Positions 12,641-44,635 of a stretch of 64,000 nt of DNA are shown piece by piece. The notes under the pieces were generated by a model. That model did not search any database and had not been told where the DNA came from. It worked only from the letters and a program-made list of their open reading frames with translations. Each line of letters opens with the position of its first letter. Position 1 is the stretch's first letter. The position numbers and the translations under genes are program-made. Location of the stretch: positions 10,069,677 to 10,133,676 of the forward strand of contig CM119266.1 of the NCBI GenBank assembly GCA_051294375.1, given 5' to 3'. The DNA comes from Paraspadella gotoi (lineage: Eukaryota; Animalia; Chaetognatha).

Positions 12641-13279
12641 GAGAAACAAAGCTGGACAGCTGCTGGAAGGCCGCTGTACAGTCACTGCAGAGCAGGAACT
12701 CGTTGCAGAAAAAGAAAAAAAATATATATATATATATATAATTTAAAGAAATAAAAGAAAGGCAAAAATATGTTACAATTGTTTACAATTGGAAATTTTT
12801 CCAATTTTTTCCAATCGCAGCTTGTAAAAGATTTTATTTTTATTTGTATTAAAATTAAGATATAGCTTCTCATTAAAAAGTTCCTTTGAGTTCCCATTTT
12901 TATTATAGATTTGATATCTTCAATATTATATACTGCAATATGTAAATTAGATTAAAGCATTTCTATATACTAATTTTGATACTATAATGAGTACTATAAT
13001 CTTATTTTCATATTGCAGTAAATCAAAATGAAGTGGAAATTCAAACAAAAAATACTTAAATCCAAATGTAATAAGAAAATATCAGAGCTATTTCAAGATG
13101 AGAAGCCATATCTAAATTTTTAACTTACTATGATCACACACTTTTATAAAACTTCATCGTAATTAATAATAATTTTTATTTAAAAAAAAACTATAAAAGC
13201 GTAGTAGTTTTTATACAAAAAAGCGTGACGCCGACGACCACGACGACGACGACGTCACAAAGAAGCTGACCCGAATCAA

Positions 13280-13318: not shown

Positions 13319-13759
13319 AAAATCCGAAATTTAAAAAAACGGTAAACAAGATTCCGAAATCTTTTTGTTTACTCGATTTTTTAAGAGATTTAAACTCAGC
13401 GAAATTGCTCACGACTCCGATAAAATCCTGTCAGAGCAGCTGAGATAATTGTTGAGTCAACAAACAGGTTTTTTGAAAAAAAAGAAAATTGGAATCTTCG
13501 ACTTTTTATCTTAATGATATTTCAAGGGGCGTTTTTTACAGAATCCTTGCATTGTTTAACTTGAAAAAAACTTTTTTTAAAAGAAAAACCGGCATTTACT
13601 AAAAATACTAAAATTTTAAGGACTGCAATGACAATTTTTTTTTTCTGTAATCTTTCCTCGACGCAGTAATTATCTTAGTAATTTACTAATAAGTGTCATT
13701 GTCATTGACCGAATTTGACATAACCCGAAGATGCCGCGAGAACAGTTCTACACTGATGG

Positions 13760-14252
13760 TCGAAAACAGAACATTTTCGTTGGATGATTGCGGTTGAAGC
13801 AATTGACCGTCATGGTTATGGAATTGATCAAATTCACTCTGGCCGCTAAACAAAAAAAAACCTCTACGACGACATTGCAATGTTGGAGGAATGGTCTTAC
13901 CGCAATTATGAAAAGTTTTTAAAGTTGAAGAATTTAATGAGGGTTGAAAAAAACATTTTGCACAAAGGGAGACAAATTCCGAATCTTGAGAAAGCCGATA
14001 TTTTCTTTTTGAGCTTTGTTTCAAGATTCATATTGAGCCAAAAAAAACAACAACTTGTCGCCAAAATTCAGCGGAAGAGTAACAATGAAAACCATTCTAC
14101 CAAAATCGAAATCGGTGCTAAGGAACTCGAAGTAAATTTGTCAGACATCCACAAAATCGTTTCAAAGTTATTTGACGATCCGAAACAAAAAGAAAAATGG
14201 TGGAGTTATTTTCAAAGACTCAAAGAGGAGCCTTTGGACGAAACGGAAGGAG
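13760..14252 (+). CDS. Exon encoding HEPN-like (DZIP3-type) domain, copy 1, of the kinase-RNase locus
   Basis: Reads EHFRWMIAVEAIDRHG / MELIKFTLAAKQKK / NLYDDIAMLEEWSYRNYEK...GRQIPNLEKADIFFLSFV...KIQRKSNNENHST...LSDIHKIVSKLF, with two frameshifts near 13815 and 13855. It aligns with the exon at 15698. GTAAG donor at 14253. The HEPN call comes from the DIxFL motif plus the (R/S)NxxxH motif at 14078-14095. Confidence 0.6.
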
Positions 14253-14299
14253 GTAAGAAATTCTCTAATACTTTAATTAATTTATATATACTAAAGTGA

Positions 14300-15490
14300 C
14301 CTAGAGTACCGTTCTGACGGAATGGATACACTTGATAAAGGATAGCCCTTTGTTGTTAGTAATCCGGATCCGGCGACAGGCTTGCAACTGGCGATTCAAC
14401 CGGCCCGTCACTCTTTGGCAATGGACAGAATTGTTCGAAAATGAAGCGTTAGCCCAATGCCATATTTTATCACTTATCCAACGGGTAGTAGATATTGTGT
14501 TACCCCAACAATTGCGCGTCAAAATTATAACTACCCTAGGCTCAAGTTTAATATCCTGAGCCAAATCCAATGATACAAAATAAACCACTGGCATACTTCA
14601 CTGTATTGAGACAGACTCAATTAGATTTTTTTAATTGATAGATAAATTTTAAACATTTTTTATGCATAAATTTCATTTTAATTTATAATCATTAAAAACT
14701 TTAAATTTATTTTCCAACAAAGGTGGTTTAATCGCCATGTTGTCGGCAAATCGCACTATAAACCTTTTTTGGTGCATAGGAGGGTGACACTCCAGCTTTT
14801 ATTGAAATAATTCTAGCAAGCTGACAACCATGACCAAGAATCCTTGTCTGTGCCAAAAAGATTATTGGCAAGATGACGAGTTGTTCCAACTGCCTATCAT
14901 TAGCCTGTCCTCCCTGGAAAAACAGAAAAAGCAGGAGTTGGCTTTTGTAAAACTATTGTCAATTTTAAAGAATAGGTAGTTAACGCAAGAAAAAGTGACT
15001 AGTGAGACATAGCATCTCCTGATTAAAAGTTTTTTAATGTAATTTTTACAGAAAAAACAGCTCCAGAAGTGGGTATAATCCTTAGCCATCCTGAGGTTCC
15101 AATCTGTAACATATTAATATTTTATTATGGTAATTCCAATTCAAATAAAAGCAGAAACCAAAGTTTTTATCAATATTTGATTTTTGTAATGACGAATAAA
15201 CAGAGCTGCTTTTGGACAAGGTTTTTTGCTCCATGAAGAATAATTTTTTCTAGCGATGCATAATTTTTTTTACCTTTTTGGAAACCATTTTGAGAAAGTT
15301 TTAATTATTGAATTTAATTATTTATTTCTAGGCTGACTTAATAAGAATTTGTAATTCAATCTCGTCTGCCCGTTAAAGTAAAGTTTCTACGGGTTTTTTG
15401 ATATTATTGATACTAATAAAATAATAATTATCCAAAGACTCTTGTCGTACTCTTTAAACGGGCGACGTCTAGAACGCGCGACACCTTGAG
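14300..15490 (+). CDS. Fragmentary short exons with WD40-like motifs
   Basis: SGDRLATGDSTG/PVTLWQW (14363-14424, frameshifted), GGLIAMLSANRTINLFW (14722-14772) and LSYSLNGRRL (15442-15471), separated by short AT-rich GT..AG intron-like tracts. The exon structure cannot be resolved. Confidence 0.4.
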
Positions 15491-15697
15491 GCATGAAAAT
15501 AACATATATTTTCTGCAAATATTTTTAAGCAATGTTTTGGACTTTTTAAAAACGTCAATGATTTTTATATCAAATAGTATCATAAATTTTATTTATTGGC
15601 ATATAGTGTAATGTGTAATTAATTGTTATTTTGCATCATTTAATTTGGCTCACGGGGTATTATATTTTTTGACCATACAAATTTTGTTTCCTTGAAG

Positions 15698-16363
15698 GAT
15701 TTTTTACTCTGAACCAATACCGTTGGTTTCGCATTAATGTTGCGATTCAAGATGGTGGAAGAAAAATGCTTCAGCAACTGGTACAGATAGATCTACAGAA
15801 AAAATATAAATTGAGCTTTGATAACAAACTATGGGAGAGGTGGTGTATTGACAACTATGATGAATTAAAAAAATGTCGGTTTTATTTGTCTCAAACAAAG
15901 GTCTCTATAAATGGAAAAGCTGTACCACGTTTAGAATTTATAGATGTCTCTTTTTTACACGGTGTTATTCTCTTAATAAACCCCAAACGAAAGGAGGTCA
16001 TGTGGCGCTTGACAGACTTAAGAATCAAAACCGTTAATCTTGAGTATGATCTCGACGAATCTAAATTCAATTCACTTTTCGACGATTTATTTAAAATCTG
16101 CANNNNNNNNNNNNNNNNNNNNNNNNNNNNNNNNNNNNNNNNNNNNNNNNNNNNNNNNNNNNNNNNNNNNNNNNNNNNNNNNNNNNNNNNNNNNNNNNNN
16201 NNNNNNNNNNNNNNNNNNNNNNNNNNNNNNNNNNNNNNNNNNNNNNNNNNNNNNNNNNNNNNNNNNNNNNNNNNNNNNNNNNNNNNNNNNNNNNNNNNNN
16301 NNNNNNNNNNNNNNNTGGAGTACATTAAGATTCAACAGATTGACGGAGATCAACTGAACCCAA
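15698..16363 (+). CDS. Exon encoding HEPN-like (DZIP3-type) domain, copy 2 (interrupted by an assembly gap)
   Basis: Acceptor TTTCCTTGAAG ends at 15697. Open frame FFTLNQYRWFRINVAIQDGGRKMLQQLVQ...WERWCIDNY...GKAVPRLEFIDVSFLHGV...WRLTDLRIKTVNLEYDLDESKFNSLFDDLFKIC, then N-gap 16103-16315, then YIKIQQIDGDQLNP and a phase-1 GTAAGT donor at 16364. Confidence 0.7.
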
Positions 16364-16401
16364 GTAAGTTAAAAAAATGTTTGGAATTTGATGATAAATA
16401 A

Positions 16402-16512
16402 GCCATAGCGTTTCAGGCTAACTTACTCTACAAATTGAGCTTTTTTAGTATTTTCTGAACTTACCATGCTTCATTGCTTGTGTAATTGTATTAGCCTGAA
16501 ACCGCAAATGGC
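16402..16512. mobile_element. ~110-bp palindromic MITE-like insert inside intron 16364-16656
   Basis: GCCATAGCGTTTCAGGCTAA ... TTAGCCTGAAACCGCAAATGGC form ~20-bp imperfect terminal inverted repeats, with weaker inner complementarity. Confidence 0.6.
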
Positions 16513-16656
16513 AGAAGTTAACTTACTGAGGGTATGTAGCTCATAAAACAAGTACATGTGCAACGCATCCTGGCATTCCTGGGCCACAAATTAATACATA
16601 TTTAATATTTTTATTGCTTTTTGCCTTCAATGACATTACACTTACTTTCTTATCAG

Positions 16657-18600
16657 GTTCCCTTACAACATCTACAGGACAACGCTTTACTATTGATTTC
16701 AAAACACTTCTTTAGATAAAACACACCTAACAATCCCGTAGTTTTTGAGGGCAAAATGCTGACAAAGTGACAGTAGCTATAAAGTCAATACAACTGACTG
16801 ATACAAGGAAACATTTACAATTCAGCGAACAGTGTGAGAATAATTCGTAAGTTTGACAGACATCAAAATCTGATTTCATTTCTTTGGTGATGCAAAGGAC
16901 GAATGCCAGGGCAGACCGACAGTTGGATATCTTTTAATGGAGAAATGCGAAGCTACTTTGAGAGACGGTCGTCAATGGTTTTGAGCTACCCGGACAACTG
17001 ATTTAAAAAGAAAGGCAGTAACTGGAACTGGCAAAAATCTTTTGACTGGTTTAGCAGTACTTGCACACGGGTATAAGACCTATTGTTCACAGAGATATTA
17101 AACCGGATAACTGTTTTATAAAGATAGACGCAAGAAATAATACAATCACAGGAAAACTCGGTGACTTTGGGGTCAGTAAAGAAATGAGTAGTTGTCAATA
17201 TGAAACAACTGCCATCCATGGACATGAATATTATAGATCTCCAGAGCTTTTGCAGTTTCATTTGGAGTCAAAGTAAAATTAACACCAGAAGAACATCATT
17301 TTTCGGATGTTTTTGCACTGGGTGGTACTCTGGGAGAGTTGTTTACAGGAAAACATCCATTTTTAGGAACAAGCGAGTATACCTTTAATATTCAGAATAA
17401 TATTAGTGATGGAAAATTTAATTTTCTACCTTTTTTGAATATCCCGTATGAAGCTAAAATAGGAATGTGCAATCTCATACTGGCCATGACCTATTTTACA
17501 GCGACTAAAAGACCCACCGCAAGTAAATGCATGGAGCATCTGATATTTCAGAATCCTACACACAAAATACAGAAAGAGCGAATAGAGATCAATCAGTTAC
17601 TGAATGATAAAAAGGACCAAGAAGAAAAGCAAATATCATTCAACAGTATAATGAAAACTCAGAATTGATCTTGGGATGTAACGGAAACTGGCTGAAAAGT
17701 TTCTCACCACAATTTCATCCTTACTTGACTGGAGAGCGAGGTAAACTAAGCAAATATGATATCGCCCAAGCTTCTGAGCTTCGGCGTTGTTTGAGAAACA
17801 TCTTCACACATGCGGTTAGTCACTCTGACATTGAGGAAGTAGTGGGAATAACTCAACCGAGACAAGAGACATCCATAGGTACTTTAACAAAATATACCCT
17901 TGGTTGGATTGCCACGACTTGTGGTTCATCAAGTTTCTATGTGACAAACTTGATATTTTTGGGGAGAAAAATTTTTCAATACGAGTTAGAGAACAGATGC
18001 ATCAAGGAATTTGAAGAAAAAAAGGCCATTCTTCCTTTGCAAAAAAATAATGAAATTTTTATTGAGGGAACCGAAAAAATTGTAATTAAGCAAGAAAAAG
18101 TGTTCGCTTTAATTTCTGTCGGGACCATCAAAAAACTACTTCGTTCAAAGAAAAAAAGCAACTTTCTGATTTCCAACTCCTTGGGAGACACGTTATCTGA
18201 CGAAGACTGCGTTCTCGATGGATCGACGCTGCGGGCAGAAAAAATCAGGGAGCTTAAGATCTCTCTCGTAAGCAGAGAAAGATTCCAGATGCAAGAGATG
18301 GAACTTGAAGCCAACGGTGATTTGATGATCGCCGAGCTCGTCGCTGAAGCCGTAGAACAATTGCCACGTGACTTCAAGAAAAAGATCAAATTCATGAGGT
18401 TGCGAAGTTCGAACGATAAGTTGCTGGATCCTAAGAAGACCCTGGAGGAGCAAGCCGTCTTCAGCGGATGCAAGTTGGTAGCCGAGTTCATTGACGATAT
18501 CGACTCGTTCTGGTTACCGATTGGAGGAGAAGATGAAGAGGAGAACAAATCAGAGGGAAGCGATGAAGATGTGATCGAATGGGGCGGTTTGTTTGAGTAG
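16657..18600 (+). CDS. IRE1/RNase L-family Ser/Thr kinase + KEN ribonuclease + C-terminal ubiquitin-like domain(s); long terminal exon with several apparent frameshifts
   Basis: The acceptor TTTCTTATCAG ends at 16656 and joins in phase (SSLTTSTGQRFTIDFKTLL). Kinase motifs: VFEGK, VAIK (16773-16784), IIRKFDRHQNLISFFG, YLLMEKCEATL, HRDIKPDN (17088-17111), DFG (17163-17171), YRSPE, SDVFALG, TGKHPF, KRPTASKCMEHLIF. KEN: NWLKSF...SKYDIAQASELRRCLRNIFTH (17794-17811) and, in a shifted frame, RYFNKIYPWL (17877-17906). UBL-like: 18050-18240 and 18244-18489, then an acidic tail and TAG at 18598-18600. Confidence 0.88.
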
Positions 18601-18778
18601 TTGTTGACGCTGCATTGAAAAAATTTGTGTGTGACTATATCTGTATCTAATCATTAAATTTTTTGAAATTTAAATAGGTATGTCTTTATTGTTTATATCT
18701 ATTATGTAGTATTCAAAAAGATTCAATCTTAAAGTTAAACTTTTTGAGCGGAAAACTAAAAAAATAAGATCGGTTCAG

Positions 18779-44562: not shown

Positions 44563-44635
44563 GCCGAAATAGCTCAGTTGGGAGAGCGTTAGACTGAAGA
44601 TCTAAAGGTCCCTGGATCAATCCCGGGTTTCGGCA
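44563..44635 (+). tRNA. tRNA-Phe-GAA: tRNA-Phe, anticodon GAA, intronless
   Basis: GCCGAAATAGCTCAGTTGGGAGAGCGTTAGACTGAAGATCTAAAGGTCCCTGGATCAATCCCGGGTTTCGGCA, 73 nt. Acceptor stem GCCGAAA/TTTCGGC, anticodon stem TTAGA/TCTAA, T stem CCTGG/CCGGG. Confidence 0.96.

Follow-up and report, generated by a model that had tools for sequence, protein, structure and literature searches.

Activation of IRE1 and RNase L depends on a front module that drives dimerisation of the kinase-KEN unit behind it. The KEN domain is itself a HEPN RNase, in which the R and the H of the motif are essential (PMC3710099). According to the same source, HEPN domains that have no motif are proposed to be RNA binders, and Swt1 combines an inactive HEPN dyad, inferred to be an RNA sensor, with another RNase. 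Table 1 of PMC3710099 gives kinase, ankyrin, CCCH, UBI and BRCT as partners of KEN, KEN-ubiquitin-like fusions included, and a HEPN-like dyad is not listed there. In the same table, the DZIP3-like HEPN domains are joined to TPR, RING, ankyrin, CARD, NACHT, death and LRR. The division of labour within HEPN pairs has been described for several enzymes. In Ire1, the R, N and H act inside one protomer, and the partner binds in trans (PMC3149027). Both motifs of Cas13 are needed, as single changes of R or H impair it, and Las1 has hardly any cutting activity once the R is lost on one side and the H on the other (10.1101/760058).

We describe here a gene of Paraspadella gotoi in which two HEPN-like domains with damaged motifs, D1 and D2, stand in front of a kinase and a KEN domain. 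The window that we analysed is the whole stretch of 64,000 nucleotides in which this gene lies.

Gene structure and domain content

The gene is on the plus strand. Its D1 exon (13731..14252) has a likely start at ATG 13731 and ends in phase 1 before the donor GT at 14253. A GT-AG intron follows (14253..15697), which is skipped in a public contig from runs X6 and X7, where it was seen as a loose end. The D2 exon (15698..16363) is preceded by AG and followed by GT, in phase 1 at both ends. Behind it lies a second GT-AG intron (16364..16656), whose joint, 16363->16657, is present in the X6/X7 contig and absent from runs X1 and X5. As both introns are in phase 1, D2 is a symmetrical exon, which would be expected under exon duplication.

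One long last exon on the same strand, from 16657 on, holds the kinase, KEN and ubiquitin-like parts. The Ser/Thr protein kinase domain (16657..17600) has VAIK at 16773, HRDIKPDN at 17088 and DFG at 17163, and is frameshifted in the window only. It was recognised by Pfam Pkinase (E 1.8e-12 and 6.6e-5); many kinases among the PDB sequences were matched, none of them singling out a family. The KEN (Ribonuc_2-5A) RNase-like domain has approximate borders (17600..17990) and an intact RNIFTH at 17794-17811. Its Pfam match (PF06479, E 0.0033, 18 bits), obtained with the frameshifted sequence as the query, is under the cut-off of 23.3. A match of KEN to calcium-binding protein 1 among the PDB sequences (E 0.006) covered 26 residues and was rejected as a short chance match. 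The domain at 18229..18477 is likely ubiquitin-like, judging from a sub-cut-off match to Pfam Ubiquitin_5 (E 0.0039); an acidic tail and the stop TAG (18598-18600) follow. About 65 residues between KEN and this domain (18040-18230), for which there was no database match, might form a second ubiquitin-like fold.

No membrane helix was found in the residues read, that is, with the roughly 18 residues inside an N gap omitted from the hydropathy scan. The highest value over 19 residues was 1.55 and fell within a helix of D2, and the linkers are hydrophilic. Ankyrin and PIN domains had no Pfam match in the pieces scanned.

On the 5′ side, about 225 nt of the spliced contig lie upstream of ATG 13731. 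One candidate 5′ untranslated exon is 13667-13730, which follows a strong acceptor (13666); another is 13019-13158, a stretch flanked by AG and GT. We rejected a third HEPN copy in the latter stretch, its score being no better than those of shuffles. The window as a whole is AT-rich and full of microsatellites and N gaps, and a repeat scan returned mostly microsatellites. It also contains a tRNA-Phe(GAA) gene at 44563-44635 (Rfam, 66.5 bits).

Homology of D1 and D2

The original prediction paired the two exons by eye on the basis of short peptides, all of which we recovered at their places. They are FRWMIAVEAID (13775), LEEWSYRNYEK (13883), GRQIPNLEKADIFFLSFV (13967) and SNNENH (14078-14095) in D1, and YRWFRINVAIQDGG (15718), WERWCIDNYDE (15832), GKAVPRLEFIDVSFLHGV (15913), RIKTVN (16021-16038) and LDESKFNSLFDDL (16051) in D2. 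BLASTP aligned the two domains with 26% identity over 97 aa (E 9e-5). The shuffling check that had been suggested for this pair, which was picked by eye before any shuffling, gave a Smith-Waterman score of 75 against a shuffle mean of 31.6 (z 8.0), and 0 of 5000 shuffles did as well in local as well as in global mode. Judged by these alignments, D1 and D2 are homologous. Both are also basic, with K+R 26 vs D+E 18 in D1 and 23 vs 17 in D2.

The reading of the first 130 nt of D1 in a single frame did not hold, as it runs through a TAA at 13847-13849. Judging from the alignment with homologues, the frame starts at ATG 13731 and switches near 13775, near 13812 and at an A9 run at 13852; the last switch was found by a script and the other two were read by eye. 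Given this frame, the TAA is probably no genuine stop, and the 'RHG' read there was probably taken from a wrong frame. It is the 5′ end of D1, in these first 130 nt, that looks noisy, and 13860-14252 has no frame break over about 390 nt.

Assignment to the HEPN fold

A search with D2 among 1.84e9 proteins returned five relatives (P0004-P0008; E 9.5e-7 to 1.1e-4), all of them singletons without useful names. Four are fragments that end upstream of the motif; the fifth, P0008 (E 1.1e-4 with D2), reaches an RNEIAH motif and the closing helix pair. The first Met of four relatives coincides with ATG 13731. An HMM built from the five relatives only was run against 1278 six-frame segments of the window. 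It detected D1 at E 3.3e-7, and the best unrelated segment was at E 0.68. The corresponding value for D2 (E 2.4e-23) is circular, D2 having been the query that yielded the relatives; the D1 score is free of this circularity. Both domains are in this way homologous to a motif-bearing HEPN domain, that of P0008.

Several separate signs place P0008 among HEPN domains. Pfam gave HEPN_RiboL-PSP (E 0.002) and HEPN_Cthe2314 (E 0.015), both below the cut-off. Its Atlas neighbours, at 0.93-0.95, were mostly molluscan clusters, several of which have PF18738/PF15112 (HEPN_DZIP3/DUF4559) on 11-38% of their members. The structural model had a pLDDT of 87.6 and a pTM of 0.83, from a seven-row alignment that had D1 and D2 among its rows. 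The best VIA match of the model was the C-terminal domain of Swt1 (Z 7.4, rmsd 3.9, 112 aligned; for a helical bundle, this Z is below 8), followed by Csm6 (Z 6.4, rmsd 4.6, 118 aligned). Ten of the 50 VIA rows were HEPN-bearing proteins according to PMC3710099 or 10.1101/760058, a correspondence at the level of the protein in which the aligned range may differ. The top four rows in Foldseek were Csm6, at E 0.5-1.2.

D1 and D2 themselves had no direct HEPN match in Pfam, PADLOC or the PDB sequences, and the Atlas gave no usable match to D2. PF18738 did not match D1, D2 or P0004-P0008 at E<=10 under HMMER filters that drop weak matches, and there was no Pfam match of PF15112 to D1, D2 or the five relatives. 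Modelled alone, D2 had a pLDDT of 37. The predicted complex of D1 and D2 scored 0.00 in two runs, with a D1 of 128 aa that was minus its first helix, with the alignment not used and with the fold of the partner uncertain, a score that speaks neither for nor against their pairing. Since the separate weak lines agree, we regard the family as related to the DZIP3/CXorf38/Swt1 group, from which it has diverged, and not as a member of PF18738. Thus, from the claim of DZIP3-type HEPN domains, homology to HEPN through P0008 and a place near this group could be retained; a PF18738 match was not obtained, nor did D1 or D2 themselves match HEPN in Pfam, in the Atlas or by fold. Through P0008, it is likely that both have the HEPN fold.

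P0004-P0008 form a HEPN-like subfamily that has no Pfam model. It shows a conserved W-x-x-W-C...K-Y-R-F block and a short beta hairpin, and P0008 keeps the full motif. Other matches were discarded. For D1, these were Pfam CowN, MIT and tudor and PADLOC ZorA and AbiEii, all sub-threshold, together with metagenome matches in 3 of 155 stretches, which were high-GC, appeared by eye to be bacterial TIR proteins and shared one 8-residue word. A pannexin match to the family alignment A3 (PDB sequences, E 0.5-0.9) was a short chance match. Relatives occurred in 0 of 363 stretches of the metagenome scan. Full-length relatives with the same architecture were not found by word-index searches with D2, the KEN-Ubl piece and A3, which are weak searches.

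State of the catalytic motifs

Degeneracy of both motifs had been predicted and is supported through the comparison with P0008. The D1 motif SNNENH (14078..14095, plus strand) aligns ungapped with RNEIAH of P0008, so that the R is lost and the N and H are kept. The first codon (14078-14080) is AGT in the window, exactly as claimed, a reading that comes from the assembly letters. When residues 91-156 of P0008, which lie outside the search match, were aligned with the D1 tail, 6 of 3000 shuffles were as good. D1 also has a formal Rx6H (RKSNNENH), with an Arg two places ahead of the family R; it is the S that is aligned at the catalytic place.

In D2, the motif RIKTVN (16021..16038, plus strand) keeps the R and has lost the N and H. 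Its letters, for which a check against raw reads had been proposed, are unchanged in the contigs of X1, X5 and X6/X7, and these pieces show 0 differences. The alignment of the D2 tail to the motif region was not significant (970 and 1155 of 3000 shuffles were as good), and the register of RIKTVN was placed by the HMM alignment and by spacing, not by a significant pairwise alignment. From the D-x-x-F block to the motif there are 25, 27 and 26 residues in P0008, D1 and D2, respectively. Whatever the register, no Rx4-6H occurs in the 134 residues of D2 that were read; the roughly 18 residues hidden by the N gap come after the motif. By the aligned motif positions, D1 would keep the N and H and D2 the R.

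Transcripts and the integrity of the gene

Four of the 11 listed public runs, from three studies, were compared with 15650-18610 only. X6 and X7 have the same lengths and depths and are probably one data set filed twice; that they are RNA is a guess. In their contig of 2032 nt, the last 30 nt of D1 (14221-14250) are joined to D2 and then to the kinase, and the joint 16363->16657 is at GT..AG. D1, D2 and the kinase are therefore in one spliced contig. It aligns by its positions 746-1152 and then 1255-2032, with 0 differences over 15696-16102 of D2. Across the gap of 213 N at 16103-16315, this contig has no more than about 54 nt, which keep the frame.

As its letters stand in the window, the kinase-KEN part requires 11 frame switches between its motif blocks. 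Comparison with the public contigs gave 38 indel rows, and among the 12 that were listed, nine were found in all four runs at full depth and all 12 in X1. Nine of the 12 are surplus letters in the window, and the 12 together explain five of the 11 frame switches exactly. Three contigs, with net lengths of 780 vs 778, 1122 vs 1118 and 635 vs 627, each restore the frame that the motifs need. Over 780 nt of kinase, the comparison with the public contig gives 12 gap letters, and 8 further letters differ; the flanking pieces show 0 differences to the window. As the indels are absent from the public contigs and one of these is spliced from D1 through D2 to the kinase, the frameshifts of the window are probably assembly errors, arising from noisy gap-filling; a private decayed allele would be a less simple explanation. 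The gene is probably intact and expressed, and annotation of the assembly as given would wrongly drop it as a pseudogene.

A second version of D2 (span 15709-16092) was present in X1 and X5, from two studies, at similar depth, with 40 of 283 letters different and no gaps. The same two runs have a second version of intron 2 (span 16400-16695), with 34 different letters and 6 gap letters in 296. Over the kinase both versions collapse to one contig; upstream, the divergence is about 12-14%. Among the 11 listed D2 differences of the second copy, seven alter the residue and none makes a stop. The X6/X7 pieces that were listed did not include the second D2 copy, which carries no weight. This version is a paralogue or a divergent allele, and gene conversion or a chimeric paralogue might also be involved. 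Loose ends at 17082-17126 in all four runs suggest a more distant paralogous kinase that has only the HRD stretch in common.

Discussion

On the best reading of these data, the gene would encode a cytosolic, IRE1/RNase L-like kinase-RNase in which a HEPN dyad, likely inactive like that of Swt1, takes the place of the usual sensor. We propose, with a probability of about 0.45, that the twin motif-damaged HEPN-like domains are a non-cutting, RNA-binding and dimerising switch for the KEN RNase. D1 and D2 would have arisen through the duplication of a phase-1 exon. They might pair in cis or across two molecules, as HEPN domains do, with the basic groove kept, and would bind RNA or a nucleotide signal without cutting it. 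The signal-bound domains would then bring two kinase-KEN units together and turn on the KEN RNase, possibly with decay of RNA as the output, during an immune response or under stress. The original prediction offered an intramolecular pseudo-dimer, or inactive HEPN domains repurposed as RNA or nucleotide sensors for KEN; by analogy with other HEPN proteins, such a switch may take either form.

Other explanations differ mainly in what they make of the damaged motifs. One of some weight, although unlikely, is that D1-D2 is a protein-protein module only and binds no nucleic acid, serving as a constitutive dimerising scaffold or as a decoy that binds inhibitors or active HEPN proteins of the family and so trips the kinase-KEN unit. 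Such a role would suit the loss of motif residues in a frame that is kept (40 of 283 letters and no gaps in the second D2 copy; 34 letters and 6 gap letters in 296 in the adjacent intron), and seven residue-altering differences among 11 without a stop, upstream of a kinase that collapses to one contig, might reflect rapid change of the front domains, as on a conflict surface. However, the intron has diverged about as much as the exon, so there is no excess change in D2; moreover, both domains remain basic, and no partner is known. It is less probable that D1 is an active RNase, with D2 as its non-catalytic partner, either because AGT is an error for an Arg codon or because the Arg two residues earlier serves instead. 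Assembly errors are indeed frequent in this gene (in the kinase, 12 gap letters and 8 others over 780 nt), D1 has kept N2 and H6, and in Ire1 one protomer cuts and the other only binds (PMC3149027). Rx4-6H is also the published criterion, which 194 of 202 DZIP3-like HEPN domains of the pearl oyster satisfy (PMC9646362). Nevertheless, unlike the noisy stretches, 13860-14252 is unbroken over its roughly 390 nt and agrees with the contig over the final 30 nt, and it is the S and not the earlier R that is aligned at the catalytic place.

The losses in D1 and D2 are complementary, and an R from one motif acting with an H from the other has been raised as a possibility (10.1101/760058). A split site, in which D1 gives the N and H and D2 gives the R, would make an asymmetric cis-heterodimeric RNase like that of Cas13, and the protein would have two RNase centres. 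This is highly improbable, because the R1E|H6A′ combination in trans severely hampers Las1, Cas13 is impaired when a single R or H is changed (10.1101/760058), the Ire1 centres are formed per monomer (PMC3149027), and the register of the D2 R is not statistically fixed. The behaviour of Las1, Cas13 and Ire1 is the reason why we prefer the non-cutting switch to a split site. Very unlikely too is a related version, namely an RNase L analogue without ankyrins or 2-5A, whose cis-paired HEPN domains share the residues (N and H in D1, R in D2) and use this site to trap foreign RNA, or to nick it, and to activate the kinase-KEN unit of the same chain. The least probable explanation is a decaying pseudogene, whose motif losses would be neutral decay. 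The 11 frame switches of the kinase/KEN part in the window and the breaks at the 5′ end of D1 would fit it, rare variants are lost from contigs, and the runs may not include the individual that was assembled. Against this, four runs from three studies lack the listed indels, the contigs stay in one frame by net length, the flanks match the window exactly, a spliced contig exists, and the catalytic motifs of kinase and KEN are present.

A literature search, for the most part outside subscription papers and the full architecture lists of PMC3710099, yielded no description of a HEPN-dyad/kinase/KEN protein. The gene thus seems to combine known parts in a new way, seen to date in one species. If the proposed switch is true, it would allow a test of an idea put forward long ago, namely that HEPN domains lacking the motif are RNA receptors.

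Comparison with known systems

Cas13 resembles the present protein in having two HEPN domains in one chain, but both of its motifs are complete, whereas here neither is complete in register. The DZIP3/hRUL138-like (PF18738) and CXorf38/DUF4559 (PF15112) families are the nearest Atlas clusters of P0008, and they share with the present protein the N-terminal position and a D-x-x-F-L block about 25 residues ahead of the motif. These families, however, mostly keep Rx4-6H and are fused to NACHT, death, ankyrin, TPR, RING and dsRBD, not to kinase-KEN. Swt1, the top fold match of P0008, likewise carries a pair of HEPN domains with damaged motifs next to an RNase from a different family. It differs in that the gene described here has no PIN domain, its partner is kinase-KEN, its dyad is N-terminal and there is no sequence match to Swt1.

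The likeness to IRE1 and RNase L lies in a kinase that is directly followed by KEN with RNxxxH. Unlike IRE1, the protein has no luminal domain or membrane helix; unlike RNase L, it has no ankyrin repeats, and its kinase motifs VAIK, HRD and DFG are intact, whereas RNase L has a pseudokinase. IRE1 and RNase L use different sensors for their common kinase-KEN output, and a likely dead HEPN dyad at the front would, if our proposal is true, be a third input.
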